From positions 59,584,001 through 59,648,000 of the forward strand of contig CM059432.1 in the NCBI GenBank assembly GCA_030390025.1: a stretch of DNA of 64,000 nt, in the 5' to 3' direction. The stretch comes from Squalus acanthias. Its lineage: Eukaryota. A program made the translations under genes and the position numbers. The notes beneath the pieces were generated by a model, which saw nothing but the letters and a program-made list of their open reading frames with translations, was not told the DNA's origin and made no database searches. Positions 1-61,706 of the stretch are shown here, one piece after another. The first letter of the stretch is position 1. Each line of letters begins with the position of its first letter.

Positions 1-2280
1 ATGAGGTGGGCCAGGTCGACCAAATGTCTGTGGGAGAACACTTGGGTACGAGTGATCGTCGTATCATAAGATTTAGATTAGCAATGGAGAGGAGCAAGGA
101 ACAATCTAAAGTGGAACTTCTAAACTGGAATAGGGCTAACTTCAATGGGGTGCGAAAGGATCTAGCCAGGGTAAAATGAAACCAAAGACCGACAGCAAAA
201 ACTGTAACGGAACAATGGGTGATCTTTAAGGAGGAGATGTTCCAAGTACAGGCTAGGTACATTCCAACAAGAGGGAAGAGTAAGGGAACCAAAGCAAGGG
301 ATCCTTGGATGAAGAGTGAGATAGAGAAGATGATGAAACAAAAAGAGGGCGTATGATGAATGTCAGGTGAATTCTTCAAGGGAGAACCAGACCAAATACA
401 ATAAGTTGAGAGGGGAAGTGAAGATGAAAATAAGATTGGCAAAGAGAGAATATGAGAGTAGAATGGCAGTTAACATAAAAGGGAACCCAAAAAATCTTCT
501 ACCGGCATGTAAACAGTAAGCGAGTAGTAAGAGGCGGGGTGGGGCCTATTAGGGACAAATAAGGTGATATATGCTTAGAGGTGCAGGGCAAGGCTAGAAT
601 AGTCAATGAGTACTTTGTATCGGTGTTTACTAAGGAGGTGGATGCTGACAAAATATCGGTAGAAATGGAAAAGGTAGAAGCAATGGAAGGGGCGAAAATT
701 GATAGACAGGATGTACTAGAAAGGCTGGGTATTAGTGGATAGGTCACCTGGTCCAGATGGCTTGCATCCCAGATTGCTAAGGGAATTGGGGGAGGAGATA
801 GCAGAAGGGCTTGCCATAATTTTCCAATCTTCCCTAGATGCGGGGGAGGTGCCCGAGGATTGGAAAGTGGCAAATGTGACACCATCGTTCAAGAAAGGGT
901 GTAAGGACAATCCTAGTAACTACAGGCCGGTCAGTTTAACATCAGTGGTGGGTAAAGTTTTAGAAACAATAATCAAGGAAAAAATTAATGGGCAATTGGA
1001 GAGGTTTAAGCTAATTAAGGAGAGCCAACACGGATTTGTAAAAGGCAGATCATGTTTGACTAATCTAATTGAATTTTTTGATGAAGTAACAGGGAGGATT
1101 GATGAAGGGAATACAATGGATGTTGTCCACATGGATTTTAGGCAGGCGTTTGACACAAAGTACCACATAGAAGGCTGGTTAACTAAATTGAGTATCATGG
1201 AATAGGTGGGTTAGAGGCAGCTTGGATAAGGAATTGGCTTATGGACAGAAAACAGCGAGTTGTGGTAAGTGGCTGTTTTTCAGACTGGTGGATGGTAGAC
1301 AGTGGTGTTCCCCAAGGGTCAGTGCTGGGGCCACTGCTTTTTTTGATATGAGACCTGGATATTGGAATACAGAGTAGAATTTCTAAATTTGCCAATGACA
1401 CCAAACTTGGGGATGTGGCAAACAGTGAGGATGATACCAATCGACTGCAACAGGACATGGAAAGGCTAGCAGAATGGGCAGACAAGTGGCAGATGGAATT
1501 TAATAGAGAAGTGAGGTGATGCATTTTGGCAGAAGGAACAGGGAGAGGCAATATACACTTAATGGCACAGTTTTAAAGAGTGCAGGGACAGAGGGACCTG
1601 GGAGTTAATGTACATAGGTCTCCGAAGGTGGCAGGACATATTGAGAGAGTGGTTAGCAAAGCATATGGGATCTTGGGCTTCATAAATAGGAGGTATTGAG
1701 TACAAAAGTAGAGAGGTTATGCTGAACCTTTATAAAGCGCTGGTTAGGCCACAACTGGAGTACTGCGTCCAGTTCTGGTCACCACACTTTAGGAAGGATG
1801 TGAAGGCCCTGGAGAGGGTGCAGAGGAGATTTACCAGAATGGTTCCGGGGATGGGAGATCTTAGCTAAAGGACAGGTTGGAGAAGCTGGATTTGTTTTCA
1901 TTAGAGCAGGAGGTTGAGGGGTGATCTGATAGAGGTGTACAAGATTATAACGGGTTTGTATAGGCTAGACGGGGAAAGGCTGTTCCCACTAGTTGATGGT
2001 ATAAGGACTGGGGGGATACAGATTTAAGGTTTTGGGCAAGAGATACAAGGGGGATGTGAGGAAAAACTTTTTTATGCAGCGAGTGGTGAGGACCTGGAAC
2101 TCACTGCCGACGGAAGTGGTGGAAGTGGAGACACTCAATGTTTTCAAGGGGGGACTGGATAGGCACTTGAGGGAAATAAACTTGCAGGGCTACGGGGTCA
2201 GAGCGGGGGATTGCTCTACAGAGAGCCGGCACGGACTCGATGGGTCAAATGGCCTCCTTCTGTGCCGTTATGACTCTATA
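1..2280 (+). mobile_element. CR1 LINE, degenerate ORF2 (end of endonuclease, RT, C-terminus) plus 3' tail; nested in an outer CR1
   Basis: ORF 735-1205 has SPGPDGLHPRLLREL, NYRPVSLTSVVGK and QHGFVKGRSCLTNL; ORF 2032 has KNFFMQRVVRTWNSL; many frameshifts and stops. Confidence 0.95.
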
Positions 2281-2905
2281 GTTATGAGAATAGGGGACTT
2301 CAGTTATCCGAACACAGACTGGAAAAATAAGAGCGTAAAAGGCAAAGATGGGGAGGAAATCTTGAAATGTATACAAGAGAACTTCCTTCATCAGTACATT
2401 TCCAGCCTAACGAGGAAGGATGCAGTGCTGATCTAGTTCTGGGGAATGAAGTGGGGCAAGTGGAGCAAGTTTCAGTGGGGGCGCATTTAGGAAACAGTGA
2501 TCACAATATCATTAGGTTTAGAGTAGTTATGGAAAAGGACAAGGGCAAGGGCAAATAAAATGTGAAAATACGCAACTGGAGGAGGGCTAATTTCAGGGAG
2601 TTGAAAAGGAATCTGGCCCAGGCGGATTGGAATCAAAAACTGGTGGGTAAAACAGTAAATAAGAAATGACAGGCCTTCAAAGAGGAGCTAGTTCAGGAAC
2701 AGACGAGCCACATTCCCACAAGGTGGGAAAGGAAGGGCATCCAAAGTTAGTGCGCCCTGGATGACGAATGATGAGATTAAAATGAACTGAAAGAGGGAAT
2801 AAGAGGGGCAAACAAAGTGTATGAGAATATTAGCAGGTACCCAAAAAAGGAACCCAAAAGTCATTTATAAACATATAAAAGAGTAAAAGGTAATCAAAGG
2901 AAAGA

Positions 2906-3032
2906 CGAATGAGCATCGACCTGAAATATTAACTCTGTATCTCTCTCCACAGATGCTGCCTGACCTGTTGAATATTTCAAGCACTTTCGGTTTTTATTTC
3001 AGATTTCCAGCATCTGCAGTATTTTGCTTTTC
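2906..3032 (+). mobile_element. Short Penelope-associated element starting in a degenerate hammerhead core
   Basis: 15-bp TSD taatcaaaggaaaga (2891-2905 / 3033-3047); homologous to 22160-22279 and 36190-36329. Confidence 0.8.
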
Positions 3033-4254
3033 TAATCAAAGGAAAGATGGGGCTGATTGGGGAACAAAAAGTCGATAGTCTTGTGGAGTCAGAGGGCATG
3101 GCTGAGGTATTAAATGAGTACTTTGTATCTGTCTTCACTAAAGACCGGGGTTGGGGGGGGTGAGGGAAGTGAGACTAGCTGAAGTGCTCTTGCAGAGAGC
3201 TGGAATGGCCTCCTTTTGTGCTGTAACCATTCTATGATTCTAAGTGGAGGATGCTGCCAATGTCACAGTAAAGGAGGAGGTGGTGTTAGAGAAAATGGAT
3301 AGGATAAAAAAAAAATCTACACAATTTACTTTTAACACCTTTTTAGACTTAAAGTACTTTAATTACGTTTTTTAAATGACTAATTTGATTTTTGGACAAA
3401 ATATGCATGATTCTGTTCTCGTGCTGTTGACGGTCTCTCAAGCTTTGGCGTTTTTTCCATTTTTATTGTACGGTCATTAATGAAGCAGTGTTGAATATAA
3501 GTGACAGTGTATCTTTGCTTATGCTATCTCACAACCATGTCAAAGAAACACGTTCCTCAAAAAGGTGGAAGGTCGCCACTATTGAAGATGTGTGCGGACA
3601 TGAGGTAGGACAGGAGGGGGCTTGGCTGTGATGCCTCCTGTAGTCAAAAAACTTTGCAATAATTATGGTCAAGGCTCACACATGTATAATGGCCAGTTGG
3701 GCTAGACTCAGGAGGATGACTGTCTCATGGAATGATAAAGAGGTACATAAAAGGTTGGCAGCGCGCAAAGTAGAAAGGCCACCCGGTCCAGATGGGATGC
3801 GTCCTAGGTTGCTGAGGGAAGCAAGGGTGGAAATTGCAGAGGCTCTGGCCACAATCTTCCCATCCTCCTTAGATATGGGACTGGTGCCAACAGGATTGCA
3901 AATTTTACACCCTTGTTCAAAAAAGGGAAGAGGGATAAACCCGGCAATTACAGGCCAGTCAGCCCACGTCAGTGGTGGGGAAACTTTGGGAGACAATAAT
4001 CTGGGACAAAATTAATTGGCATTTGGAAAAATATGGGTTAATAAATAAAAGCCAGCACGGATTTGTTAAAGACAAATTGTGTTTGACTAACTTGATTGAG
4101 TTCTTTGATGAAGTAACGGAGAGGGTTGATGTGGGTAGTACAGTTGATGTTGCATACATTTATTGTTGTACCACATAATAAATAGACTTATTAGCAAAAT
4201 TGAAGCCTGTGGGATTAAAGGGGCTGTGGCTGCGTAGTTACGAAATTAACTAAA

Positions 4255-4717
4255 AAATAAAAAAAAAGACAGACTTACATTTATATAGTGCCTTGCACGA
4301 CCTCAGGACGTCCCAAAGCGCTTACAGCCAATGAAGTACTCTATTTTATTGAAGTGTAATCACTGTTGTCATGCAGAAAACGCGGCAGCCAAGATGCGCA
4401 AAGCAAGATCCCACAAACAATGAGATAATGACCAGATAATCTGTTTTAGTGATGTTGATTGAGGGATAAATATTGGCCAGGACACCAGGGATAACTCCTA
4501 TGCTCTTCTTAGAAATAGTGCCATGTGATCCCAGGTCATGGGACGTGACAGAGCAACTCAGTTCATCTGAAAGACGGCACATCCAACAGTGCAGCACGCC
4601 CTCAGTACTACAGTGGAGTGTCAGCTTAGACTTGTGTGTTCAAGTCTCTGGAGTGGGGCTTGAACCCACAACCTTCTGGCTCAGAGGTGAGAATGCTACC
4701 AACTGAGCCACGGCTGA
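4255..4717 (-). mobile_element. tRNA-derived Deu-domain-type SINE (SacSINE1/AmnSINE1-like) with L2-type 3' tail
   Basis: Minus-strand head tggctcagttggt...gggttcaagccc; body shared with 6570, 19155, 24201 and 58520; flanked by an actaa duplication. Confidence 0.85.
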
Positions 4718-6564
4718 CTAAGGGACAGAAAGCAGAAACTAGCGGTGAATGATTGTTTTGCAGACTGGAGGGAAATGTGCAGTGGTGTCCCCAGGTGTCA
4801 TGGTTAGGATTACTGCTCTTTTTGATATATATTAATGAGCTGGACTTTGGTATACAGGGCATAATTTCAACGTTAGCAGATGACACGGAACTCGGAAATG
4901 TAGTAAACAGTGAGGAGGATAGAAACAGACTTCAGGAGGACATACACACTGATGAAATGGGCAAACACATGGCAGATGAAATTTAACACAGAAGTGTGAA
5001 GTGATTCATTTTGGTAGGAAGAATGAGGAGAGGCAATATAAAGTAAAAGGTACAATTTTAAACGGGGTGCAGGAAGAGACCTGGGGCTGTACATACAGAA
5101 GAAGTCTTTGATGGTGGCAGAACAAGTTGTGAAGGCTGTTAAAAAGGCACACAGAATCCTTGGCTTTATAAATGTACAATTTAAGGCTAGAACCTTAAAG
5201 GTTAACAAAGCAGTTAATAAACCATGTGAGATCCTGGGCTTTATAAATAGAGGATTAGAGTACAAAAGCCAGGAATGTATATATAAAACACTAGTTCACA
5301 GCCCCAGCTGGAGTATTGTGTCCAATTCTGGGCACCACACTTTAGGAAGGACATGAAGGCTTTGGAGAGGGTACAGAAGAGATTTACTGGAATGGTTCCA
5401 AGGATGAGGGATTACAGTTACTTAGATGGACTGGAGAAGCTGGGGTTGTACTCCTTCGAGCAGAGAAGGCTAAGAGGAGATTTGATGGAGGCGTTTAAAA
5501 TCATGAAGGGTTTAGATAGAGTAAAAAAAGAGAAACTGTTTCACAGATTTAAGGTGATTGGTAAAAGAACCAGGGGCAACATGAGGAAAAAAATGTTTAC
5601 GCAACGCGTGGTTGGGATTTGGAATGTACTACTCGATAGGATGGTGGATACAGATTCAATAGTAGCCTTCAAAAGGGAATTGGATAAATACTTGAAGGAG
5701 AAAAAAATTGCACGGATATGGGGAAAGAGCAGGGGAGTGGGACTAACTGAATTGCTCTTCGAAAGAGTCGGCGCAAACTTGATGGGCTGAATGGCCGTCT
5801 TCTGTGCTCTATTATTCCATGATTCTATATTTCGTCACCAACCTTGTCTGCATCAAAAAAGTGTAAGATCTATGCAAGAATTGCATCACTAATGTTCATA
5901 TGGCACCACTGCAAACTTGTGAGGAAGCAACATGGATGCTCAAACTCATTTGAGATTAGGCTATTTCAGGAACCCCCCCTCCCCAACACAATAATGTAAT
6001 ATCTTTTTAAAACAAAAGTTTGACCATCTCTTTTCTACACAGCGAGACTGAACTGAACATTGAACAGTTTACAGAAAAGTTATTTTTTGCTTCCAAATTT
6101 TCTCCCATGCTCTCTTGAAGATATAGACTCATGTTGGGGTACAACTGACCAAACGGCCATTCTTCACACACAAGTTCAGTCAGTGTCACTTGGCTATTCA
6201 ACTCGACAGGTACCTCAGCCACATCTGAACCTTTATCTACAGACACATGCTTTGCAGCAGGGTAACTGAATAGTGATCAGAACAAGGACCTTCAGCAAAC
6301 CCCTTCCCAACTCCCACCTTCCTAGCCAAGGTTGAAGCCACTCTGCTACGACACAAGAGATCCGCTCTTCTTCAGCCAACGTGCATGAGTTTGCTTTCTC
6401 GAGAAGAACTGCCAGTGAATGTTTTGTTCATTTAGCAATTCGGACAATAGGCTAGATTTACTTTAATGGCATCCACATCTTAGTTTTTCGAATGTCAATA
6501 AAAGATCAGACTCAGTAAGTTTCCCGTGTGAGTTTTAGTCCTTTATCAAAATAATCCTAACGAA

Positions 6565-7010
6565 AGAAAGAATTTATAAAGCACATTTCATGACCTCAGG
6601 ATATCCCAAAGCGCTTTACAGCCAATTAATTACAATTTGAAGTGTAGTCACTGTTGTAACGTAGGAAACACAGACAATCTGTGCACAGCAAGTTCCCACC
6701 AACAGCAACGTGATAATGACCAGATAATCTGTTTGTGATGTTGGTTGAGGGATAAATATTGGCCAGGGCACTGGGGGGAACTTCCCTGCTCTTCTTCAAA
6801 TAGTGCCATGGTATTTTTTACAGCCATCCGAGAGGGTAAAAGGGATCTCGGTTTAATGTCTCATCCGAAAGACGGCACCTCTTGACACTGCTGCACTCCC
6901 TCAACAATGTACTAAAGTGTCAGCCTAGACTTTGCACTCAAGTCTCTGGAGTGGAACTTATACCCACAACCTTCTGATTCAGGGGCGAGAGGGCTAACAG
7001 TGAGCTATAA
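6565..7010 (-). mobile_element. Deu-type tRNA SINE
   Basis: Collinear homology with 4255-4717. Confidence 0.85.
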
Positions 7011-9241: not shown

Positions 9242-11251
9242 ATTTTTAATTCATTCACGGGATGTGGGCGTCGCTGGCAAGGCCAGCATTTATTGCCCAT
9301 CCCTAACTGTCACTGAGAAGGTGGTGGTGAGCTGCCTTCTTGAACCACTGCAGTCCGTGTGGTGAAGGTACTCCCACAATATTATTAGGTAGGGGGTGCA
9401 GAACTTTGACCCAGTGATGATGAAGGAAGGGAAATATATTTCCAAGTCAGGATGACGTGTGATTTGCAGGGGAACTTTGAAGTGGCGGTGTTCCCATGCG
9501 CCTGCTGTCCTTGTCCTTCCAGGTGGTAGAGGTTGTGGTTTGGGAGGTGTTGTTGAAGAAGCCTTGGCGAGTTGCTGCACACTGCAGCCACGGTGCGGGG
9601 AGTGAATGTTTAAGGTGGTGGATGGTGTGCCGAACATGCAGGCCGCTTTGTCCCGGATGGTGTCGAGTCTCTTGAGTGTTGTTGGAGCTGCACTCATCCA
9701 GGCAAGTGGAAAGTATTCCATCACACTCCTGGCTTGTGCCGTGTAGTTGGTGGAAAGGCTTGGGGGAAGTCAGGAGATGAATCACTTTCCGCAGAATACC
9801 CAGCCTCTGACCTGCTCTTGTAGCCACAGTATTTATGTGGCTGGTCCAGTTAAGTTTCTGGTCAATGGTGACCCCCCCAGGATGTTGATGGTGGGGGATT
9901 CCACGATGGTGATGCCATTGATTGTCAAGGACAGGTGGTTAGACTCTCTCTTGTTGGAGATAGTCATTGCCTGGCACGAATGTTACTTGCCACTTATCAG
10001 CCCAAGCCTCAATGTTGTCCAGGTCTTGCTGCATGCGGGCTTCATTATCTGAGGAATTACAAATCGAACTGAATGTCCTTTGGAGAAAGAAACCTGCCAT
10101 CCTTACCCTGTGCAATCAGAGAGCATCCCCACTTCTGACCTTATGATGGAGGGAAGGTCATTGGTGAAGCAACTGAAGATGGTTGGGCCTAGGACACTGC
10201 CCTGAGGAACTCCTGAAGCAACATCCTGGGGCCAACATTATTGGCCTCCAACAACCAGAACCATCTTCCTTTGCGCTAGACATGACTCCAACCAGTGGAA
10301 AGTCCCCCCCCCCCCACCCCCCATTCCGATTGATTTCAATTTTACATGGGCTCCTTGGTGCCACACTCGGTCAAATGCTGCCTTGATGTCAAGGGCAGTC
10401 ACTCTCACCTCACCTCTGGAATTCAGCTCTTTTATCCATGTTTGGACCTAGGCTGTAATGGCACCTGGAGCTGAGTGGTCCTGGCGGAACCCAAACTGAG
10501 CATCGGTGAACAGGTTATTGATGAGTAAGTGCCGCTTGATACCACTGTCAACGACACCTTCCATCACTTTGCTGATGATTGAGAGTAGGCTGATGGGGCG
10601 ATAATTGGCCGGATTGGACTAGTCCTACTTTTTGTTGATCAGACATACCTGGGCAGTTTTCCACATTGTCGGGTAGATGCCAGTGTTGTAGCTGTACTGG
10701 AACAGCTTGGCTAGAGGCGCAGCTAGTTCTGGAGCACAAGTCTTCAGCACGACAGCTGGGATGTTGTTGGGGCTCATAGCCTTTGCTGTATCCAATGTGC
10801 TCAGCTGATTCTTGAGTGAATCAAACTGGCATCTGTGATGGTGGGCAACTCAGGAGGAGGCCGAGATGGATCATCCACTCAGCACTTCTGGCTGAAGATG
10901 GATGCTAATGCTTCAGCCTTTTCTTTTGCACTCACGTGCTGGGCTCTGCCATCGTTGAGGATGGGGCTGTTCATGGAGCCTGTTCCCATTATTTGTTTAA
11001 TTGTCCACCACCATTCATGACTGGATATGGCAGGACTGAAGAGTTTTGATCAGATCGGTTAGTTGTGGGATTGCTTAGCTCTGTCCATAGCATGCTGCTG
11101 CTGCATGCATGTAGTCCTCATCTTCAGGTACACTTGGTGCTGCTCCTGGCATGCTCTTCTACACTTCTCATTGAACTAGGGTTGGCTGCCTGGCAATGAT
11201 AGAGTGAGGGATATGCAGGGGCATAAGGTTACAGATTGTAATGGATTACAG

Positions 11252-11286
<35 letters not shown>

Positions 11287-12306
11287 ATGGCCCACAGTGC
11301 CTCATGGATGCCAAGTTTTGAGTTGCTAGATCTGTTCATTTGGCACACAACACAAATGGAGGGTGTCCTCAGTGTGAAGACTGGACTTCGTCGCCACAAG
11401 GTTGTGACTCCTACCAATACTGTCATGTACAGATGCATCTACGACAGGTAGATTGGTGAGGCCTAGGACAAGTAGGTTCGCTCACTACCTGCCGCAAGCC
11501 TAGTCTGGCAGACTTGATCAGTAGTGGTGCTACTAAACCACTCTTGGTGCTACTGAGCCACTCTTGGTGATGGACATTGAAGTCCCCCACCCAGAATACA
11601 TTTTGTGCCCTCGCTACCCTCAGTGCTTCTTCCAAGTGGCGTTCAATATGGAGGAGTACTGAATCATCAGCTGAGGAAGGACGGTAGGTGACAATCAGCA
11701 GGAGGTTTCCTTGTCCATGTTTGACCTGATGCCATGAGGCTTCACGGAGTCCGGAGTCAATGGTAAGGACAGGCCATACCCTGCGATGGTGATGGGACAT
11801 TGGCTGATAGTCATACTCACAAAATCATACCCATGTCAGGCTTTTGCTTGATTAGTCTGTGGGACAGCTCTCTCAATTTTGATACAAGTCCCCAGATGTT
11901 AGCGAGGAGGACTTTGTAGGGTCTGGGTGCGCCTTTGTCATGTCCAAATCCAATGCCTAGGTGGTCTGTCCTGTTTTATTCTTATTATACCTTTTTGTAG
12001 CAGGTTTGGTACAACGGAGTGGCTTGCTCAGCCATTTCAGAGGGCAGTTAAGAGTCAACCACATTGCTGTGGGTCTGGAGTCACATATAGGCCAGATGGC
12101 AGGTTTCCTTCCCTAAAGGACATTAGTGAACAATCTGATAGCTTCATGATCACCATTACTGTTGCTAGCTTTTTATTCCAGATTTATTTAATTAACTGAA
12201 TTCAAATTCACAAACTGCCTTGGGGGATTTGAACTCATGTCTCCGGATTAATAGTCGAGACCCCTAGATTACTAGTCCTGTAACATAAACACTATGCTAC
12301 CGTACC
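9242..12306 (-). mobile_element. Near full-length single-ORF CR1-group (Zenon-like) LINE with tRNA-like 5' head (copy A)
   Basis: Head with A box (12289-12299) and B box (12225-12234), then APE (WVGDFNVHHQEW), RT, and 3' end gggatgggcaataaatgctggcc...cacatccc; collinear with 15483-18138. Confidence 0.88.
11254..11286 (+). repeat. (CTG)11 microsatellite
   Basis: Read directly; the homologous site has only about 3 units in other copies. Confidence 0.95.
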
Positions 12307-12537
12307 AGTTACTGTAATTCCAGCTGTCTTTCCAACCTCGTAAAAACACTAAACATCACAGCAGACACCAATCTCAAAAGCAGTCATTAAACCATTTTCA
12401 TTCAATGAGAATTGGCAGTGCAAATGGCAAAAATTTCATTATTACAACTCTAAATTAACCTTGAAGTTCAAATTAATGCACAGGACTCTACAATTAAATT
12501 TCTTCCCACTGATCAATTGCTTCATCGTATAATAAAA

Positions 12538-12930
12538 GACATGAATTTATATAATGCCTTTCACGACCACCGGACGTCCCAAAGCGCTTTACAGCCAATG
12601 AATTACTTTTGAAGTGTAGTCACTGTTGTAATGCAAGAAATGTGGCAGCCAATTTGCACACAGCAAGCTCCCACAAGCAGCACTGTGATAATAAGAGGCT
12701 GTAAAGATCACTGTACTTGCTGCAATGGCATTGGTTTCTAGTGTGACTGAATGGTAAGAATACAGTCACTGCAAATACTTCCTATCTGTTACCAGTCCAG
12801 CCTTGGCTCAGTGGTAGCACTCTCACCTGAATCAGATGGTGTGGGTTCAAGCCCCACTCCAGAACTTGAGCAGATACTCCACTCAGAAAACAGCTCAGTA
12901 CTGAAGGAGTACTGCATTGTTGGAGGTGCT
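12538..12930. mobile_element. Two Deu-type SINE fragments (3' part on minus, tRNA head on plus)
   Basis: 12538-12690 matches the SINE tail; 12795-12930 has tggctcagtggtag...gggttcaagccc. Confidence 0.75.
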
Positions 12931-15482: not shown

Positions 15483-18138
15483 GGGGTACGGTAGCATAGT
15501 GATTATGTTACTGGACTAGCAGTCCAGAGGCATGTTCAAATCCCACCATGACAGCTGGGGAATTTAAATTTAATTAAATAAATCTGCAATAAAAAGCTAG
15601 TATCAGCAATGGTGACCATGAAATGACCAGATTATTGTAAAAATCCATCTGGTTCATGTCCTTACCTGGTCTGGCCTATATGTGACTCCAGACCCACAGC
15701 AATGTGGTTGACTCTTAACTGCCCTCTGAAATGGCCTGGCAAGCCACTCAGTTGTACCGACTCAGCTATGACAAAGTATAAGAATAAAACCGGACGGAAC
15801 ACCCAGCATCTGATTCGGACACGACAACGGCACACCCAGTCCAGTCGACCTTGCAAAATCCTCCTAACTAATATCTGGGGACTTGTGCCAAAATTGGGAG
15901 AGCTGTCCCACAGAATACAGAATAGAATCATAGAAATTTACAGCACAGAAGGAGGCCATTCGGCCCTTCGCATCTGTGCCGGCGAAAAAGAGCTATCCTG
16001 CCTAATCCCACTTTCCAGCTCTGGAAGAAGCACTGAGGACAGCAAGGGCACAGAATGTACTCTGGGTCGGGGACTTCAATGTCCATCACCAAGAGTGGCT
16101 CGGTAGCACCACTACTGATTGAGCCCTGAAGGACATAGCTGCGAGACTGGGCTTGTGGCAGGTGGTGAGAGAACCAACACGAGGGGAAAAACCTCATTCT
16201 CACCAATATACCTGTCACAAATGCATCTGTCCAAGACAGTATTGGTAGGAGTGAACACCGCACAGTCCTTGCGGAGACAAGACCCATCTTCACACTGAAC
16301 ACCCTCCAACGTACTAAATGGGATAGATTCAGAACAGATCTAGCAGCTCAAAACTGGGCATCCATGAGGCGCTCTGAGCCATCAGCAGCAGCATTGTATA
16401 CCACCACCATCTGTAACCTCATGGCCCGGCATAGCCCTCACTCTACCATTACCATCAAGCCAGGGGACCAACCCTGGTTCAATGAGGAGTGCAGAAGAGC
16501 ATGCCAGAAGCAGCACCAGGCGTACCTAAAAATGAGGTGCTAACCTGTTGAAGCTACAACACCACGTGATATCAAGAAACGGCTGAGCGCATTGGACACA
16601 GCAAAGGCTATGGGCCTCGCCATCATCCCAGCTGTAGTGCTGAAGACTTGTGCTCCAGAACTAGCCTCTAGCCAAGCTGTTCCAGTACAGCTACAACACT
16701 GGCATCTACCCGACAAAGTGGAAAACTGCCCAGGCATGTCCTGTCCGCAAAAAGCAGGACAAATCCAATCCGGTCAATTACTGCCCTATCAGCCTACTCT
16801 CAATCATCAGCAAAGTGATGGAAGGGGTCGTCAATAGTGCTATCAAGCGGCACTTACTCACCAATAATCTGCTCACCGATGCTCAGTTTGGGTTCCGCCA
16901 GGACCAATCGGCTCCAGACCTCATTACAGCCTTGGTCCAAACATGGATAGAAGAGCTGCATTCCAGAGGTGAGGTGAGAGTGACTGCCCTTGGCATCAAG
17001 GCAGCATTTGACTGAGTGTGGCATTAAGGAGCCCTAGTAAAACTGAAGTCAATGGGAATCGGGGAAAACTTGCCACTGACTGGACTCATACCAAGTACAA
17101 TGGAAGGTGGTTGTTAGAGGCCAATCATCTCCGCCTCAGGACATTGCTGCAGGAGTTCCTCAGGGCAGTATCCTAGGCCCAACCATCTTCAGCTGCTTCA
17201 TCAATGACCTTTCCTCCATCATAAGGTCAGAAGTGGGGATGTTCGCTGATGATTGCAGTGTTCAGTTCCATTCACAACTCATCAGGTAATGAAGCAGTCC
17301 ATGCCTGCATGCAGCAAGACCTGGACAACATTGAGGCTTGGGCTGGTAAGTGGCAAGTAACATTCTTGCCACACAAATGCCAGGGAATGGCTATCTCCAA
17401 CAAGAGAGAGTCTAACCACTTGTCATTCCCTTGACATTCAATGGCATTACCATCGTCGAATCCCCCACCATTAATATCCTTGGGGTAACCATTGACCAGA
17501 AACTTAACTGGACCAGCCACATAAATACTGTGGCAACAAGAGCAGGTCAGAGGCTGGGTATTCTGCAGCGAGTGACACACCTCCTGACTCCCCAAAGCCT
17601 TTCCACCATCTACAAGGCACAACTAAGGAGTGTGATGGAATACTCTCCACTTGCCTGGATGAGTGCAGCTCCAACAACACTCAATAAGCTCAACACCATC
17701 CAGGACAAAACAGCCCGCTTGATTGGCACCTCATCCACCACCTTAAACATTCACTCCCTCCACCACCGGCACACCGTGGCTGCAGTGTGTACCATCTACA
17801 AGATGCACTGCAGCAACTCGCCAAGGCTTCTTTGACAGCACCTTCCAAACCCACGACCTCCATCACCTAGAAGGACAAGGGCAGCAAGTGCATGGGAACA
17901 CCACCACCTCCTAGTCACACACCATCCTGACTTGGAAATATATTGCCATTCCTTCATTGTCACTGGTTCAAAATCATGGAATCCCTACCTAACAGCACCT
18001 TGGGAGTACCTCCACTACACGAATTGCAGCAGTTCACGAAGGCAGCTCACCACCACCTCCTCCTCAAGGACAACTAGGGATGGGCAATAAATGCTGGCCT
18101 TGCCAGTGATGCCCACATCCTGTGCATGAATTTTAAAA
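15483..18138 (+). mobile_element. Near full-length single-ORF CR1-group (Zenon-like) LINE with tRNA-like 5' head (copy B); CR1 tail inserted at about 15914-16020
   Basis: A box 15492-15502, anticodon-like arm 15511-15527, B box 15534-15543; then ILLTNIWGL, GDFNVHH, QFGFR, GVPQGSILGP, FADD and YKAQLRSVMEY. Confidence 0.9.
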
Positions 18139-19154: not shown

Positions 19155-19608
19155 AGAAAGACTTGCATTTATATAGCGCCTTTTACGACCACCGGAAGCC
19201 CCAAAGCGCTTTACAGCCAATGAAGTACTTTTGAAGTGTAGTCACTGTTGTAATGTAGGAGCACAGCAAGCTCCCACAAACAGCAACATTATCCCATGTG
19301 ATAATGACCAGATAATCTGTTTTAGTGATGTTGATTGAGGGATAAATATTGGCCAGGACACCGGGTATAACTCCCCTGCTCTTCTTCGAAATAGTGCCAC
19401 AGGATCTTTTACGTCCACCTGAGAGCGCAGACAGGGCCTCGGTTTAACTGCTCACCTGAAAGATGACACCTCCGACAGTGCAGCACTCCCTCAGTACTGC
19501 ATTGGAGTGTCAGCCTAGATTTTTGTGCTCAAGTCTCTGGAGTGAGACTTTAACCCACAACCTTCTGACTCAGATATGAGGGTGCTACCAACTGAGCCAC
19601 GGCTGACA
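19155..19608 (-). mobile_element. Deu-type tRNA SINE, full length
   Basis: Head tcagccgtggctcagttggtagcac on minus; L2-type tail ggcgctatataaatgcaag. Confidence 0.88.
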
Positions 19609-23695: not shown

Positions 23696-24200
23696 CTGAA
23701 TGGAAAATTTTACCAGTCGAAAATGCCATGTCCCACATGTTCTCTTTCCCCCATCTCCTTTCAATCGAGTGACTATGTTTCACGAGCACAACCTTCAAAG
23801 AGACAAATATGTGCTGTACTACAGTGTACGAGGTTAATATTTATATATCTGTACACAGATGTTTGCTCCAGTGATGCCAAAGGTGGGCTTCTGACATTCT
23901 TTTGCTCCTCTGCAGCAAGTTTGTATATGAATTAAAATAAGAAAATGTGTATCAAAACATTAGCCGGAATAAAATTTTTGAAATGTTTATATGATCCCCA
24001 TGAGATAAATGGAGGATGTAAATTCAACCAATCAGGCCATTAGAGCATATGATGCTAAGCAGATGAGTCATGACACTGCATAATAATGCTGTTGCTTTGA
24101 CTTTAAACATGAATTAAGCATGAACTGGTGCTTTTGGTGATGATTTACTATCTTTCTTTGTCTACAGTACTGCAAAAATTATAAATGGGACTTGGGAAAT

Positions 24201-24612
24201 GTCAGCCGTGGCTCAGTTGGTAGCACCCTCTCCTCGGAGTCAGAAGGTTGTGGGTTCAAGCCCCATTCCAGGGGCTTGAGCACAAAAATCTAGACTGACG
24301 CTCCACTGCAGTACTGAGGGAGTGCTGAACTGTCGGAGGTGCCGTCTTTCACCCCGCCTGCCCGCTCAGGTGGACATAAAAGATCCGAAGGCACTATTTC
24401 GAATAAGAGCAGGGGAGTTATCCCCGGTGTCCTAGCCAATATTTATCCCTCAATCAACATCACAAAAACACAGATTATCTGGTCATTATCACATTGCTGT
24501 TTGTGGGAGCTTGCTGTGCGCAAATTGGCTGCCACGTTTCCTACATTACATCATTGGCTGTAAAGTGCTTTGGGATGTCGATGGTCGTGAAAGGCACTAT
24601 ATGAATGCAAGT
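24201..24612 (+). mobile_element. Deu-type tRNA SINE
   Basis: gtcagccgtggctcagttggtagc...gggttcaagccc head, shared body and tail. Confidence 0.88.
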
Positions 24613-25687
24613 CCTTTTTTTAAACAATACACAATTCCCCAGGCACAGTACCCTTATACAGACATAACTGAGGAGATACAAAATCAATTGATCAACAGAA
24701 ATTGATCTGCTCATGTACATCAGTAAGTCCTCACTGTGACATATCACTTAGGCTTACTAACAAACTCTACCACACTTGCACAACCTTTACCACAAGTGTT
24801 TGTATGGCTTGCAAAACAACAGAGTACAAGATTCTCCTGTAGATGTCACAGCCTTTGGCACGTAACATGCAGGAGTTTTATACTTCGATTCAGACTGTAA
24901 AGTGGTGTGGTACAGTAATGAATACCTGATATTACTGTAACATTCAATTAAATTCTTAAAATCTTGAGTGGCCAAATGTTCAACTTAAAAGGATCATTCT
25001 ATTTTAAAGGCACCTGTCATAAATCGCAAGTAACAACTCAGGAAGTACTACTGGGTGGCCAGCTGGGGCGCCGTCCAGGGAGTATAAATACTCAGGAATG
25101 GGCCCACCTTGGGCAGAGACAATCTGGAAACAGGAAGCTAGTGACTGCTAACTAGACCTCCATGTTTTGTTACAAGTTGATTAAAGCCTTGCTTTATGTT
25201 CAAGTGCGTAGTGAGTCTTTATTACGTCAGCACCCACTTAATATATTCTGGTATATAGCCCATAGATTCCTTAGAGTGTACTGCTATTAATTCCAGTTTG
25301 CCTACACAAATTGCTGGAAATACAGTGAAGCAGATTAAAATACTGCTAAAACAAGAGCTGAAGTGAAACCTCAGACAAGTATTTTTTACTTAACGTGAGA
25401 GCCACAAAATGGTTACATTTATTATGGGGATATAATAATTAAGCATAGACACCTGTGTGTGGGGCAAGGGGGAGGCAGGAATTTTCACTGAAATCACAAA
25501 CCAATCAAAAATCTCCAAATATTTACATTTAATTTCAAATTTTACATATCTGACATGGCATATACAATGAGTGCCAGATTATGATCTATATATTGGCTTG
25601 CAACAGTTCAGAATACAATATAGACACACATACATACACGGACAGACAGACACAATATAAACATACACACACACACAAATATAAACA

Positions 25688-29099: not shown

Positions 29100-30470
29100 C
29101 AAGGCCATATATACTACTACCCATACCTAGTTGTTCTGAGATGGTGATGGTCAGCCCTCAGCACCCATCCAGAGGAGTGGTGAGTATTCCATAACATTCG
29201 TGACTGAGTCTTGTAGGTGGTAGGGCTCTTTCAGGGGTCAGGAGGTTAGATACATGTCACAGAATACCCAGCCTGTGCTCTACTCTTATATCCGTGATGA
29301 TGATACAGCTGGTCATTGTTGAACTTCTGGTCAGAGTTGACCACTGCCTCCCCACCCAAAATGTTAATAGTTAGAGATTTGACAATGATGGTGCCACTGA
29401 AGACCAGGGAGAGATTTTCAATGCCTGGCACATAAGTTGCACAAATGCTACTTGCCGCGTCAGCCCAAACCTAGATATTGTCTAAATCCTGAAGGCTGGC
29501 ATGGGTTGCTTCACCATAGGAGGAATTTCTGAATGGAATCATTAGCAAATAACCCCTTTCCTGACCTTATGATGAAGAGATCATCTTTGACGAAGCAGCT
29601 GAATACGATTGGGCCAAGGATGCTTCCCTGCGGAACTCCTGGGGGCTGTGATGATTGGCCTCTGACAACCACAACCATCTTCCGAATTGTCAAATATAGC
29701 TCCAGCCACTGGAGGATTTTCCCTTTAACCCTCAGTGTCCTCAGACTTGCTAAGCTTTTGGATGCCATATTAAGGTTGAATTCTGCAACACTCATCTCTT
29801 CTCTGCCATTCTGCTGAAGTCCGGAGCCGGGTGGCTCTGATGGAATTGAGCCCCAGCACTGCTTAATGGCACTACTAATGACTCCTTCCATCACATTGCT
29901 GCTGATTGGGAGGCAAGCGATAGGCTGGAATGTATTCAGTTTTTTGGTGATAGGACATACCTGAGCTGGGCAATTTTCCACATCGTCAGGTAGATGCCAA
30001 TGTTATTGCTCTTAAACAGTTTGGATGGATGGGGGTGGGGGAGAGAGAAGAGAAGAGAAGAAAGCTAGTTCTGTTGTGCAGGTCCAACACTACAGCCAGG
30101 ATGTTGTCCGCAGAGCACCGCAGCTTTCCAGCGCACTTAGCCGCTTATTCCACAATGATGACGACCTTAAGGGCAGACTGAGAACAGCTTGCTTGCCATT
30201 TTTATCTGAAAATACTTGCAAACACTTCAGTCTCAGCTTTTGCACTTGTGTGCTAGACTCCACCATGGCTGAAGATAGAAAATTTCATGGAACCTCCTCC
30301 TCCTGTTAGATTCCCGATTGTTGGCTGAATATGGTAGAGCTACAGATCTTTGCTCTGATCTGTTGGTTGAGAGATTGCGCAAGTCTGTCTACAGCCTACT
30401 GCATTTGGCATTTAGCATGAAGGTAGTCCTGTGTTGTAGCTTCACTAGGTTGGTACCTCATTTTAAAAGG
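29100..30470 (-). mobile_element. Old degenerate copy of the Zenon-like LINE (RT region)
   Basis: ORF 29511-29981 has VMEGVISSAIKQ and GVPQGSILGPIVFSCF. Confidence 0.8.
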
Positions 30471-31269
30471 TATCCCTGGCACACCTTTCCTGTAACTGCA
30501 TCTGCTTCTTTCCCATTCTGTAATTCTTCTGCGTTGCACTCAGTTTGTCTTCCACCCTTTTTATGTCAGACACTATTCTCACTGTGGCATCCATCACCAA
30601 CTTTCTTAGTGTCTTATTCTTTGTGTTTCTCCTCCCATCTCTTCTGTATGTGTGCAGTGTCCATGTGTTTCTCACACTTGTTCCTTTTAACGATATATGC
30701 AATACCTATCCGTTACCTTTAAGTCTAGGATGCACAGAAAGATGACAGGCAACATGAACAAGAGAGAAGCAGGAAGAGCTGGTGTAACATGAGAGGTTGA
30801 GAGGGATGACAGGACTGAAGGTAAATTCAGGAGGAACCAGGCAATGTGGCAGAAAGGTGTTATAATTAGTGGGAGCTAGCAGAGAGGGCAATGGCAGAAC
30901 CCGAGTGCTCCTGAGGTAATGAAGTATGGGATCAATAGGGATTGGGAATATGCTGAGACTGCAGTCTTGGCATGGTAGGATTTGGGAATCACCTGGTTTT
31001 GGCAGCATTCATGGGAAGGGCGAGGGAACTGGAAACAATGGGAGAGAAGGATATAGTTTCTGGTAATACTCAGGGGAGTGCAAGAGTATTCAAGGGAGAA
31101 AATGTGGAGACGGTGAGCACTCAGGAGGTTCCAGGCAGTCAAGGAAGAGCTTTGGAGTATCAGAGGCTCAGCACTAGATGGAATGGGCTCTGTGGTGTGG
31201 CTGCAATGTGGGAGATAACGAAGCAGCATATGCCAGCCTACAACAGGATAAGTTCTAGAGGTGGGCTGA

Positions 31270-34200
31270 CAAGTGGTAGGTAACATTTGCTCTACATCTT
31301 GAACAAGAGAAAGCCCACCCACCTCCCCATGACCTTTAATGGAACCAGAGTTCCCCCACTGGGGGTCACCACTGACCAGAAAGTGAACTGGACTTGCCAC
31401 ATCATTTACCTAGCCCCACAGAAAGTTGATTGTTAGTTACAAAAGCAGGACAAAGTCTGGGTACTCTGACAAATTACTCACTTTCTGACCCCTCAAAGCC
31501 TCTCCACCAGACAAGATTCAAGTCAAGAGTGTGATGGAATACTCACCTGGAAGGGTACAGCCGCAACAACACTCAAGCAGCTAAACACAATCCAAGGCAG
31601 AGCAGTTCATTAGATTGGTGCCCCATGCCACTCTACTCTATATCCATCCCCTCCATCACTGGTGCACTGTGGCCAGTATTTATTGCCATCCCTAATTGCC
31701 CTTGAGAAGGTGATGGTGAGCCGCCTTCTTGAACCTCTACAGTCTGTGTGGTGAAGGTACGCCCACAGTGCTGTTAGGGAGGGAGTTCCAGGATTTTGAC
31801 CCAGCAACAATGATGGAATAGCGATACATTTCCAAGTCAGGATGGTGTGTGACTTGGAGGGGAACTTGGAGGTGATTGTGTTCCCATGCGCCTGCTGCCC
31901 TTGTCCTTCTAGGCGATACAGGTCACGGGTTTGGGAGGTGCTGTCAAAGAAGCCTTGGCGAGTTGCTGCAGTGCATCTTGTCGATGGTACACACTGCAGC
32001 CACGGTGCAGCGGTGGTGGAGGGAGTGAATGCTTAAGTGGTGGATGGGGTGCCAATCAAGTGGACTGCTTTGTCCTGGATGGTGTTGAGCTTCTTGAGTG
32101 CTGTTGGAGCTGCACTCATCCAGGCAAGTGGAAAGTGTTCAATCTCACTCCTGACTTGTGCCTTGTAGATGGTGGAAAGACTTTGGGGAGTCAGGGGGTG
32201 AGACGCTCACCGCAGAATATCCAGCCTTTGACCTGCTCTTCTGGCCACACTATACATGTGGCTGGTCCAGTTAAGTTTATGGTCAATGGTGACCCCCCCA
32301 GGATGTTGATGGTGCGGGATTCGACGATGGTAATGCCATTGAATGTCAAGGGGTGGTGGTTAGACTCTCTCTTGTTGGAGATAGTCATTGCCTGGCACTT
32401 GAGTGGCGCAAATGTTACTTGCCACTTATCAGCCCAAGCCTGAATGTCATTCAGGTCTTGCTACATGCGGGCACAGACTGCTTCATTATTCTGAGGAGTT
32501 GCGAAAGGAATGAACACTGTAATCATCAGCGAACATCCCCACTTGCAGCTGAAGATGGTTGGGCCTAGGACACTGCCCTGAGGAACTTCTACAGCGATGT
32601 CCTGGGACTAAGATGATTGGCCTCCAACAACCACAACCACCTTCCTTTGTGCTTAGTAATGACTCCAGCCTGTGGAGAGTTCTCCCCCTGATTCCCATTG
32701 ACTTCAATTTTACTGGGGCTCATTGATGCCACACTCAGTTAAATGCTGCCTTGATGTCAAGGGCAGTCACTCTCAACTCACCTCTGGAATTCAGCTCTTT
32801 TGTTCGTGTTTGGACCAAGGCTGTGGAGCCAAGTGGTCCTGGCAGAACCCAAACTGAGCATTGGTGAGCAGGTTATTGGTGAGTAAGTGCTGCTTGATAG
32901 CACTGTCAACGATACCTTCCATCACTTTGCTGATGATTGAGAGTAGACTGATGGAGCGGTAATTGGCCAGATTGGATTTGTTCTGCTTTTTGTTGACGGA
33001 CATACCTGGGCAATTTTTCACATTGTCAGGTGGATGCCAATGTTGTAGCTTTACTGGAACAGCTTGGCTAGAGGCGCGGCTAGTTCCAGAGCACAAGCCT
33101 TCAGCACTACAGCTGGGATGTTGTCGGGGCCCACAGCCTTTGCTGTATCCAGTGCGCTCAGCCATTTCTTAATATCATGTGGAGTGAATCGAATTGGCTG
33201 AAGACTGGCTTCTGTGATGGTGGGGACCTCAGGAGGCCGAGATGCATCATCTAGCTGAAGATGGTTATGAATGCTTCAGCCTCGTCTTTTGCACTCATAT
33301 GCTGGGCTCTGCCATCATTAAGGATAAAGATGTTAATGGAGCCTCCTCCTTCCATTAGCTGTTTAATTATTCACCACCATTCACGACTGGATGTGGCAGG
33401 AATGCAGAGCTTTGATCGGTTTTGGTATTGCTTAGCTCTCGTTGTGGGATCGCTTAGCATGCTGTTTCCATGGTTTAGCATTTGTGTAGTCCTGTGTTGT
33501 ACCTTTACCAGGTTGGCACCTCATTTTCAGGTATGTCTGGTGCTGCTCCTGGCATGTACTTCTACACTCCTCATTGAACCAGGGTTGGTCCCCTGGCTTG
33601 ATGGTAATGGTAATGTAGAGCGAGGGATATGCCGGACCATGAAGTTACAGATTGTGGTGGAATACAATTCTGCTGCTGGCCCACAGCGTCTCATGGAGGC
33701 TCAGTTTTGAGCTGCTAGATCTGTTCTGAATCTATCCCATTTAGCATAGTGGTAGTGCCACACAACACGATGGAGAGCGCCCTCAGTGTGAAGACAGGAT
33801 TTAATCTCCACAAGGATTGTGCGGTAATCACTCCTACAAACACTGTCATGGACAGATGCATCAGTGACAGGTAGATTAGTGAGAACGAGGTCAAGTAGGT
33901 TTTTCCCCTCGTGTTGGTTCTCTCACCACCCAGTCTGGCAGCTATGTCCTTCAGGACTCAGCCAGCTTGGTTAGTAGTGGTGCTACCGAGCCACTCTTGG
34001 TGATGGACTCCCCCACCCAGAGTATGTTCTGTGTCCTTGCCACCCTCAGTGCTTCTCCCAAGTGGTGGTCAACATGAAGGAGTACTGATTCATCAGCTGA
34101 GGGAGGGCAGTAGGTGGTAATCAGCAGGAGGTTTCCTTGCCCATGTTTGACCTGATGCCATGAGACTTCATGGGGTCCGGAGTCAATGTTGAAGTCTCCG

Positions 34201-34660
34201 AGGGCCACTCCCTCCCGACTGTATACCACTGTGCCGCCACCTCTGGTGCATCTGTCCTGCCAGTATTGGTAGGAGTGACCACCGCACATTCCTTGTGGAG
34301 ATGAAATCCCATCTTCAGGCTGAGGACACTCTCCATCGTATTGTGTGGCACTACCACCATGCTAAATGGGATAGATTCAGAACAGCATCTGCTTCCTGTA
34401 ATTTTACCACCAAGAAGTACAAGAGCAGCAACGTTGTGGGAATACCATCACCTCAAAGTCACGCATCATCCTGACTTAGACATTACATCACCTTCTTTCA
34501 TTGTCGTCAGGTCAGAATTCTGGAATTTGCTACCTAACACCATTGTGGAATCAGCATCACAACAAGGACTACAATGGTTCAAGGAGAAAGCCCACCACTA
34601 CCTTCTCAGGGCAACAAATGTGGCCTTGCCTATATCGCCCACATGCAAGAACAAAAATGC
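31270..34660. mobile_element. Zenon-like LINE copy C (minus, about 31670-34262, with an inverted segment at 34261-34390) inside an older plus-strand copy (about 31270-31670 and 34390-34660)
   Basis: NYRSISLLSIISKVMEG and HQVKHGQGNLLLITTY on minus; the flanking plus-strand pieces are collinear 3' portions of the same family. Confidence 0.85.
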
Positions 34661-46377: not shown

Positions 46378-47495
46378 TGACAAAGCCAATCCAGCCAATT
46401 ACTGCCCCATCAGTCTACTCTCAATCATCAGCAAAGTGATGGAAGGCGTCATCGACAGTGCTCTCAAGCGCCACTTACTCACCAATAACCTGCTCACCGA
46501 TGCTCAGTTTGGGTTCCGCCAGGATCACTCGGCTCCAGACCTCATTACAGCCTTGGTCCAAACATCGACAAAGAGCTGAATTCCAGAGGTGAGGGGACAG
46601 TACTGCCCTTGACATCAAGGCAGCATTTGACAGTGTGGCATCAAGGAGCCCTAGTAAAATTGAAGTCAATGGGAATCAGGGGGAAAACTCTCCACTGGCT
46701 GGAGTCATACCTAGCACAAAGGAAGATGGTTCTGGTTGTTGAAGGCCAATCATCTCAGCCCCAGGACATCGCTGCAGGAATTCCTCAGGGCAGTGCCCTA
46801 GGCCCAACCATCTTCAGCTGCTTCATCAATGACCCTCCCTCCAACATAAGGTCAGAAATGGGGATGTTCGCTGAATACTGCAGTGCTCAGTTCCATTTGC
46901 AACTCCTCAGATAATGAAGCAGTCCATGCCTGCATGCAGCAAGACCAGGACAACATTGAGGCCTGGGCCGATAAGTGGCAAGTAACATTTGTGCCACACA
47001 AGTGCCAGGCAATGACCATCTCCAACAAGCAAAAGTATAACCACCTCCCCTTTGACATTCAATGGCATTACCATCGCCAACTTTCCCAACATTATCAACA
47101 TCAACATCCTGGGGGGTCACCAGTGAGCAGAATTTTACTGGACCAGTGACATAAATACTGTGGCTACATGAGCAGGTCAGAGGCTGGGTATATTCTGCGA
47201 CGAGCGAGTCACCTCCTGATTCCCCAAAGCCTTTCCACCATCTGCAAGGCACAATTCAGGAGTGTGATGGAATACTCTCCACTTGCCTGGATGAGTGCAG
47301 CTCCAACAACACTCCAGAAGCTCGATACCATTCAGGACAAAGCAGTCTGCTTGATTGGCACCCCGTCCACCACCTTAAACATTCACTCACTCTACCACTG
47401 GTGTACCATGGCTGCAGTGTGTACCATCTACAAGATGCACTGCAGCAACTTGCCAAGGCTTCTTAGACAGCACCTCCCAAACCTGCGACCTCTGC
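46378..47495 (+). mobile_element. Zenon-like LINE RT fragment (copy D)
   Basis: NYCPISLLSIISKVMEG, GIPQGSALGP and MEYSPLAW. Confidence 0.92.
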
Positions 47496-58519: not shown

Positions 58520-58973
58520 AGGGACTTGCATTTATAGAACACCTTTCACAACCTCAAGATATCCCAAAGTGCTTTACAGCCACTTAAGTACTTTTGAAGT
58601 GTAGTCACCGTTGTAATGTAAGGAAAGACTGAAGATAATTTGCACACAGCAAGGTCCCACTAACAGCAATGGGATACATGACCAGATAATCTATTTTTAG
58701 TGATGTTGGTTGAGGGCTAAATATTGACCAGGAAACCATGAGAACTCCCTGCTGTTCTTTGAATTGTGCCATGGGATCCTTTACGTCCAACCAAGGGGGT
58801 AGACGGAGCTTTGGTTAACGTCTCATGAAGGATGGCATCTCCATCAATGCAGCACTTAGTCAGTACTGCACTTGAGCGTCAGCCTGGATTATGTGCTCAA
58901 GTCTCTGGAGTGGGACTTAAACCCACAAATCTCTGACAGAAGCGAGTGTGCTAACAATGAGCCAAGGCTGACA
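58520..58973 (-). mobile_element. Deu-type tRNA SINE
   Basis: Collinear with 19155-19608. Confidence 0.85.
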
Positions 58974-60581: not shown

Positions 60582-61343
60582 TCACGTCATGTATCGTGAC
60601 ATAAACCCAAGATCCCGGTTGAGACCGTCCTCATGAGTGCGGAACTTGGCTATCAGTTTCTGCTCGATGATTTTGCGTTGTCGTGTGTTACTAAGGCCAC
60701 CTTGGAGAACGCTTACCCGCAGATCCGAGGCTGAATGTCCTTGACTGCTGAAGTGTTCCCCGACTGGGAGGGAACACTCCTGCCTGGTGATTGTTGCGCG
60801 GTGTCCGTTCATACGTTGTCTCAGTGTCTGCATGGTCTCGCCGATGTACCATGCCGCGGTGCATTCTTTCCTGCAACGTATGAGGTAGACAACGTTGGCC
60901 GAGTCACATGAGTATGTACCATGTACCTGGTGGGTAGTGTCCTCACGTGTGATGATGGTATCTGTGTTGATGATCTGGCATGTCTTGCAGAGGTTGCCGT
61001 GGCAGGGTTGTGTGGTGTCGTGGTCGCTGTTATCCTGAAAGCTGGGTAATTTGCTGCGAACGATGGTACTTCTGAGGTTAGGCGGCTGTTTGAAGGCAAG
61101 TAGTGGAGGCGTGGGGATGGCCTTAGCGAGGTGTTCGTCGTCATCGATGACATGTTGAAGGCTGCGAAGAACATGGTGTAGTTTCTCCGCTCCGGGGAAG
61201 TACTGGACGACGTAGGGTACCCTGTTGGTTGTGTCCCGTGTTTGCCTTCTGAGGAGGTCTATGCGATTTTTCGCTGTGGCCCGTCGGAACTGTCGATCGA
61301 TGAGTCGAGCGTCATATCCCGTTCTTACGAGGGCGTTTTTCAG
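60582..61343 (-). pseudogene. Truncated but uninterrupted Penelope ORF end: RT thumb, Cys-rich linker and GIY-YIG endonuclease
   Basis: Manual translation gives 253 open codons, including PCHGNLCKTC, NVVYLIRC...WYIGET, RMNGH, EHF and GLN. Confidence 0.9.
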
Positions 61344-61669
61344 CGATACATGACGTGATCCGGACTCGAGTCGTCGTTGGCTTGTTCCCAGATGTGATTC
61401 CCAGTAAAAAAGTAAAATTTTTAAAGTTTATCGTTTTACATACAGACTGCAGCTTTTGACACGTTAGACCCCCTGTGACTCCACCTCATTGTCTCAGTTG
61501 TATCTTGCTATGTCTTTGATGTGGTAAGTTCCTGGCTGACCTGATTGCCTTTTGTCACACCTCGGCAGATAAACAGTCAGGATGATTAAATTTAGTTGTC
61601 TGCCATTGTAAGGTACACATGCATTGTTCTCTATCTATATATGCTTTGGCGATTCTGTATCTCTTTACT

Positions 61670-61706
61670 TCACCCGACGAAGGAGCAGTAACTCCGAAAG
61701 CTTGTG
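61670..61706 (+). ncRNA. Hammerhead-like motif in pLTR (variant core CCGACGA); mirror copy at about 60244-60281 on minus
   Basis: tcac-CCGACGA-a-ggag-cagtaa-ctcc-GAAA-gctt-gtga. Confidence 0.55.

Follow-up and report, generated by a model that had tools for sequence, protein, structure and literature searches.

Results

Copies of a head-bearing LINE in the window

The window, by which we mean the whole 64-kb stretch of shark DNA that was analyzed, carries four copies of a LINE whose complete members begin with a tRNA-like head. Two of these, copies A and B, are 5′-complete. The features are as follows.

15483–18138, plus strand: copy A, a head-bearing Zenon LINE, 5′-complete, internally deleted, and dead; four segments, 80–90% to the family majority sequence
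15483–15554, plus: tRNA-like head of copy A, with A box at 15492–15502, anticodon-like arm at 15511–15527, and B box at 15534–15543 (from sequence and alignment)
15555–15764, plus: non-coding leader of copy A, an A/T-rich part followed by a block strongly conserved in five species (by eye)
15765–15915, plus: start of the copy A ORF, a basic N-terminal extension followed by the first APE strand, ILLTNIWGL, at 15858–15884
15916–16021, minus: CR1-type tail, a secondary insertion in the APE region of copy A; 89% over 44 nt to the CR1 majority sequence of the same genome and 80–91% to other loci
16022–18077, plus: APE, RT, and C-terminal coding remnants of copy A up to the stop codon at 18075–18077 (tblastn; Pfam APE and RVT_1 on better copies)
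18078–18138, plus: short 3′ UTR of copy A, with AATAAA at 18086–18091 and an A/T tail
9242–12306, minus: copy B, 5′-complete and dead, with a doubled arm in its head; A box at 12299–12289, B box at 12234–12225
31671–34264, minus: third copy, 5′-truncated near element position 603 (87%)
46379–47493, plus: fourth copy, an internal RT fragment (91%)

The sequence-only reading had proposed two insertions with a common head, leader, and APE start, and both were found as copies A and B. Their heads and leaders align at 75% (E 2e-88), and the APE start of copy B reads VLLANIWGL at 11912–11886 on the minus strand. The A box, anticodon-like arm, and B box that it had described are present in copy A, and the two boxes in copy B. 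The longest frames are 159 codons in copy A and 163 codons in copy B, so both copies are dead.

Several other repeats lie in the window. An inverted piece of the element (positions 1024–1167, 90%) is found at 34247–34390 (plus), where the truncated copy 34264–31671 has its 5′ end, and a CAG triplet expansion lies within copy B at 11255–11285 (minus). Old fragments at 29161–30479 (minus), 31213–31673 (plus), and 34407–34615 (plus) are only 64–72% like the main family and may belong to an earlier Zenon lineage. Three related segments of 420–640 nt, one inverted, occupy 60190–63989 at 90–97% identity. A 460-nt tRNA-headed SINE with Deu-like motifs, whose majority sequence has no T4 run, is present on the minus strand at 4261–4718, 6572–7005, 19155–19607, and 58523–58972, on the plus strand at 24200–24620, and in pieces at 12535–12929. 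We take it to be SacSINE1, probably, by name and not by sequence.

Family anatomy and coding constraint

Exact matches to two 17-mers were counted over the whole 3.7-Gb genome. The 17-mer across the B box occurred 14,137 times and that at the APE start 7,447 times; since the counts are in the thousands and each reversed control gave 0, the family is not a product of chance. A majority sequence of 3,307 nt was built from 13 near-full copies (of 20 fetched, with seven broken or truncated ones dropped), and agreement between copies falls to background at both of its edges. A second majority sequence from 40 different copies differed from it at 22 columns, and mean copy divergence was 2.9%.

The majority sequence contains a single stop-free frame of 973 codons at element positions 332–3250, with just 331 nt upstream, and Pfam APE and RVT_1 domains were found in the ORF of better copies. 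This confirms the proposed order of leader, APE N terminus, and RT with no ORF1. No intact copy was present among the best 71 protein matches scored, in which frames of 962–986 codons carry one or two stops and the longest stop-free frame is 874 codons. With CpG sites excluded, changes common to many copies were 49 synonymous to 37 others, against 999 to 2,871 for rare changes (P = 1.6e-9). Given this excess of synonymous sites among shared changes, the source elements needed their protein, and their ORF was under purifying selection. The earlier suggestion that the family is autonomous is borne out in this form.

Copies end in a poly(A) tail, that is, in A-rich tails that often have T first (40 copies). 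The tails range from one T and an A run to nine T and a few A, a variation that is probably decay after insertion. No consistent target-site duplications were detected in 40 copies, the longest shared words being mostly 4–7 nt, and no fixed flanking target of the Tx1 type was found, 5′ and 3′ flanks being unrelated between copies. Internal deletions are unusually numerous in the copies; they remove tens to thousands of bases, and their breakpoints differ.

The closest protein relatives, at 82–87%, are from the shark Heptranchias perlo, and the element stretch is present in at least six organisms. Depth of contigs over the element climbs toward the 3′ end, and both the head and head-to-tail joints are covered. 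Two runs, guessed to be RNA, cover 30 of 30 bins; being contigs, they are uninformative on start, strand, and level. No solved structure matched the element protein in sequence. A shark aldo-keto reductase model holds about 200 residues of the Zenon ORF, a fusion that is likely a gene-model artifact.

Identification as elasmobranch Zenon

By its sequence, the family is elasmobranch Zenon of the CR1 group (Stuart et al. 2026, PMC13343379), an assignment made by eye from near identity over the first 400 nt: the first 400 letters of the published SquAca_Zenon-1 consensus (3,314 nt) agree with our majority sequence of 3,307 nt at all but about four single bases. The elasmobranch Zenon-1 families of that study (SquAca, CarCar, ScyCan, RhiTyp, and HypSab) have lengths of 3,244–3,314 nt, and, like the element here, have a single ORF, lack ORF1, and end in a poly(A) tail (PMC13343379). 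Of the features of Zenon, one ORF with APE and RT, no ORF1, and poly(A) are present. The element also has the A/B-box head of a SINE2 and its absence of internal oligo-T; at 3.3 kb and with a selected ORF, it is not short, non-coding, or non-autonomous. Lack of ORF1, which the sequence-only reading had treated as special, is shared by every Zenon element (PMC13343379).

By eye, the head stands at the start of all seven elasmobranch Zenon consensus sequences, from five species, within their first 400 letters. The A and B boxes are kept in all seven and the arms between them differ (by eye). The three Zenon consensus sequences from hagfish and coelacanth do not start with the head, as judged by eye, and their first 400 letters contain T runs. 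Two B-box strings occur at least six times in the supplement of PMC13343379, each of these six in an elasmobranch Zenon row. The main text of that paper mentions no tRNA, polymerase III, promoter, or head, and does not discuss T-run avoidance or the missing AUG. The family is therefore not undescribed, as had been supposed, since its consensus sequences are in that supplement; what stands is that the head went unremarked in the main text. In this LINE family, catalogued only recently, the head is real and ancient and has so far passed without remark.

The head is the fixed 5′ end of the element

We examined where copies end when they are chosen without reference to the head. Forty of 71 listed copies were picked by ORF similarity alone. 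Eleven of these end at positions 1–5 (eight at position 2; one via a second segment), positions 6–95 hold no end, and the other 29 are scattered truncations with no other common 5′ end. Among copies picked on the APE region, 27 of 29 continue upstream of the ORF and 21 of 29 reach into the head; 8 of 19 picked in the middle of the element also reach it. The upstream flanks of 88 copies picked on coding sequence yielded no alternative 5′ sequence. The 5′ end of the element corresponds approximately to tRNA position 1, as in SINEs.

When loci were instead picked on the head, 22 of 30 continued into coding sequence, six were short head-plus-tail forms, and two were otherwise rearranged. The junctions of the short forms differ, which suggests that these forms arose from the LINE by deletion. 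An ORF1-less APE-RT element thus has the tRNA-like head as its genuine, fixed 5′ end, rather than a SINE lying beside it by chance, as the sequence-only reading had argued; copies picked by ORF lead back to the head. A headless, ORF1-bearing parent was not found in the same genome with three coding-only queries (best 40–71 candidates scored), and a search with an old diverged fragment returned the main family alone.

Nature and origin of the head

Neither ARAGORN nor Rfam at gathering score reported a tRNA in the 64-kb window. Three better copies scored 19–26 bits against RF00005, for which the cut-off is 29, and in two of the three the covariance match spans model positions 7–64 or 6–65. The head lacks an acceptor stem and is not predicted to fold as a cloverleaf; it is tRNA-like only. 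The anticodon-like arm is doubled in most copies, and no common variant falls within the B box among copies of this genome.

The head had been labeled tRNA(Thr)-like. When the head was compared with tRNAs of the same genome from four amino-acid types (Gln, Thr, Cys, and Lys), Gln(CTG) reached 59–62 and Thr(AGT) 52–55, with 46 identities each, so Gln(CTG) fits as well or slightly better, and a Thr origin is not supported over Gln. Long tRNA arrays are present in the same genome, with spacing of about 0.6 kb for Gln, 2.07 kb for Thr-AGT, and 1.78 kb for Lys (C21:3336225–3405763; C26; C2208). The A and B box pair was found in 0 of 33 relatives. ARAGORN also reported no tRNA at 48 metagenome loci, a result that is uninformative because it misses the shark head too. 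The head was probably gained by an ancestral Pol II Zenon before the shark/ray split, via a template switch from a tRNA or SINE RNA.

Depletion of T runs in the sense strand

Vertebrate Pol III terminates at four or more T in the sense strand. Both majority sequences (13 and 40 copies) have no run of at least four T (T4+) in 3,307 sense nt, alongside 14 A4+, 11 C4+, and 10 G4+ runs. For zero T4+ runs, P was 0.019 by base shuffling, 0.11 by synonymous shuffling, and 0.001 against uniform codon choice; on its own, this is modest evidence. Runs of at least three T (T3+) numbered 7 against 20.1 expected (Poisson P = 0.0007; synonymous codon shuffling P = 0.002). The ratio of observed to expected T3+ runs, 0.35, is the lowest when set against 67 control frames (minimum 0.68), and its P is the lowest of 268 base-by-control values; these control frames are distant (~28–40% identity), T-richer, and from other hosts, with the closest headless relatives outside the set. 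T4+ runs occur in all 47 related ORFs of at least 600 codons (47 of 80 loci being long enough), and in the same genome CR1 has 12 in 2,587 nt and L2 has 7 in 1,711 nt.

A runs in the element are at expectation. The deficit is therefore strand-specific, which suggests a cause in transcription or RNA and not in the DNA target. The element is T-poor overall (19.6% T), and each of the LINEs compared here has one depleted base, L2 being without G4+ runs. In the same genome, a SINE presumed to use Pol III has no T4 run and shows 7 T3 runs against 6.1 expected; because it lacks the T3 deficit, the latter is not a generic mark of Pol III. Changes that make T runs were 3 of 232 among shared changes against 150 of 4,694, a difference that was not significant (P = 0.12). 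A T run in the tail as a built-in terminator is not supported, as just one T is present in 10 of the 15 tails that were scored.

Leader and translation start

A shared leader of some 300 nt had been described. The leader is indeed shared, but it is not wholly non-coding, since about 105 nt of it already belong to the open reading frame. The frame opens about 38 codons ahead of the APE strand, and the basic stretch that it encodes resembles the Met-initiated extensions of relatives. Length variants in this N-terminal extension are often whole codons. By eye, the five published families are in frame from a conserved GCT on, with stops or a one-base gap upstream of it.

The frame has no AUG where one would be expected. 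No in-frame ATG occurs until codon 287, beyond the APE domain, and the leader contains eight ATGs. Of 37 relatives, 13 gave no match to the APE motif, and the 24 that could be scored all have a Met before it. In many distant relatives, a 2A-like NPGP or related motif precedes the APE domain; the shark element lacks such a motif. The codon after the conserved GCT is ACG in this genome and ACA or AAA in the consensus sequences of other species, and copy A reads ATG at 15768–15770 where the family has ACG (CpG decay). ACG is a known near-cognate start codon. These features suggest that initiation is non-AUG and probably internal, with the in-frame ACG as the best candidate in this genome; an RNA without a cap would be expected to behave in this way.

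Two other starts were rejected. The out-of-frame ATG at element position 360, which would require a frameshift, is ATA in 39 of 84 copies. The ATG at 305, which would require stop read-through, is in frame and is followed by TAG and, in most copies, by a second stop, TAA. This ATG-GCC-TAG, in strong start context, shares its stretch (element 305–345; window 15731–15770) with a hairpin at element 305–320 that has an anticodon-like 7-nt loop in which AGC is fixed and the preceding base varies. Downstream of the hairpin, just ahead of the constrained frame, the in-frame GCT is kept in five species. The hairpin could conceivably act as a tRNA-mimicking entry site in which AGC pairs with GCT, by analogy with the dicistrovirus IGR IRES, and we regard this as a long shot. 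The accessible part of PMC3894237 puts forward IGR-IRES-like initiation of non-LTR elements as a possibility.

The leader showed no unusual folding (z 0.5; other tests −1.4 to 1.0), and an Rfam scan of three copies with E up to 10 found no IRES or ribozyme family, a scan that divergent ribozymes can escape. With neither a folding signal nor an Rfam match, a structured IRES or ribozyme in the leader is not supported. We also rejected the leader as a Deu domain, and the element as SacSINE1 with an added ORF, as the two Deu motifs given in the available part of PMC7245038 are absent. Another SINE in the window carries one or both of those motifs, and it does not align to the element. By eye, published alignments of UCON3 and Meta bodies showed no likeness to the element.

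Discussion

The best reading of these data is that the elasmobranch Zenon element is transcribed by Pol III, to which we assign a probability of about 0.6; the lack of T4 runs, the T3 deficit, and the missing in-frame AUG are indirect signs of it. The LINE would have swapped its ancestral promoter for a tRNA-derived type-2 internal promoter, with TFIIIC binding the A and B boxes and Pol III starting at the first base of the head. Because the sense strand has no oligo-T terminator, Pol III would read through the entire 3.3 kb. The uncapped RNA would be translated by non-AUG or internal initiation just ahead of the basic N-terminal extension, and the APE-RT protein would use its own RNA as the template for target-primed reverse transcription, beginning at the poly(A) tail, a step proposed by analogy with CR1-group biology. 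By copying its own RNA from poly(A), each full-length copy would bring its own promoter. The fuller proposal, of an autonomous coding retrotransposon that has used a 3.3-kb uncapped Pol III mRNA and AUG-less RT translation ever since sharks and rays became separate lines, seems to us only a little better than an even bet on the sequence evidence.

An alternative, which we consider unlikely but worth serious attention, is that a captured tRNA or SINE piece now acts as an internal Pol II promoter or overlies one, that the RNA is capped, and that the T-poverty is a composition bias of Zenon. Characterized LINE promoters are Pol II promoters and are often replaced (PMC2881922, accessible part), the AATAAA 40 nt ahead of the poly(A) tail, a Zenon-wide trait, suits Pol II processing, and absence of T4 alone has a P of just 0.02–0.11. 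Against a Pol II promoter, the element starts at tRNA position 1, the A and B boxes are selectively kept in five species, and the T-run deficit is the most extreme in comparison with 67 controls. A capped RNA would also carry two poly(A)-type hexamers in its first 140 nt, and its eight upstream ATGs with no in-frame ATG are a poor match to cap-dependent scanning.

It is improbable that the element is promoterless and that RNase P, cleaving at the tRNA-like head, releases it from longer host transcripts in the style of ribozyme-headed LINEs, which cut themselves out: there is no acceptor stem and no predicted cloverleaf, and T-run avoidance would be left unexplained. A non-autonomous SINE-LINE chimera that a headless partner LINE mobilizes in trans, or a LINE with a SINE or tRNA gene as its target and a head that is its own in appearance only, would account for the short head-plus-tail forms (6 of 30 head-picked loci) and for the roughly 2:1 excess of heads over APE starts by exact 17-mer count, but this reading is largely refuted and very improbable, given the selected ORF, the lack of an alternative 5′ end among 88 coding-picked copies, 3′ flanks that are unrelated and carry no remainder of a SINE (40 copies), and short-form junctions that differ as in LINE deletions.

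Type-2 promoters function in mammalian extracts. Should Pol III drive the Zenon element, it would follow that this polymerase is capable of producing a productive mRNA of kilobase scale, and that translation of an uncapped RNA can be efficient enough to support retrotransposition. Plain deletion of a Zenon LINE would then also yield a complete head-body-tail SINE in one step, and the element might have potential as a compact, self-contained RNA-to-DNA insertion cassette. That LINEs use Pol II, and that SINEs use Pol III and are non-coding, is stated as a rule (PMC5786205, PMC10886601, and PMC2881922, in their accessible parts), and, if the Zenon element is driven by Pol III, the rule would be broken by a lineage whose copies number in the tens of thousands. 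Pol III products are thought to be limited in length (PMC10886601, accessible part). Pol III use by a coding LINE, if shown, would be close to categorically new.

Our literature search, whose coverage did not extend to Repbase, Dfam, or most subscription journals, did not bring up any coding LINE described as driven by Pol III, and the part of the PMC4824008 supplement that was searchable gave no match. Several known systems share part of the architecture. The lepidopteran Zenon is, like the shark one, a single-ORF element that gives 5′ plus 3′ deletion derivatives; its internally deleted derivative Persaeus, unlike the shark element, is described as having no tRNA homology or Pol III promoter (PMC6740152, accessible part). 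The TRIMp3 elements Cassandra, Helenus, and Ajax have small-RNA-derived Pol III promoters, as proposed for the shark element, but are short, non-autonomous, and of LTR type (PMC10886601, accessible part). SacSINE1 and other Deu-SINEs are tRNA-headed retroposons of the same shark genomes (PMC5499810, accessible part); they showed no significant similarity to the Zenon element, and the Deu-like SINE of the window did not align to it. RTE-1_DAn and elements related to it (Repbase, as cited in PMC5786205), known here by description alone, are RTE-clade LINEs that contain a tRNA-like sequence, and this precedent lowers the novelty of such a sequence in a LINE. The closest layout is that of Bov-tA, SINE2_Gav, and CoeSINE4, which join a tRNA head to the 5′ UTR and 3′ tail of bipartite RTE or Vingi LINEs (PMC5786205). 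SINEs are described there as unable to encode protein, and these three are non-coding, whereas the shark element has a full APE-RT ORF between its head and its tail.
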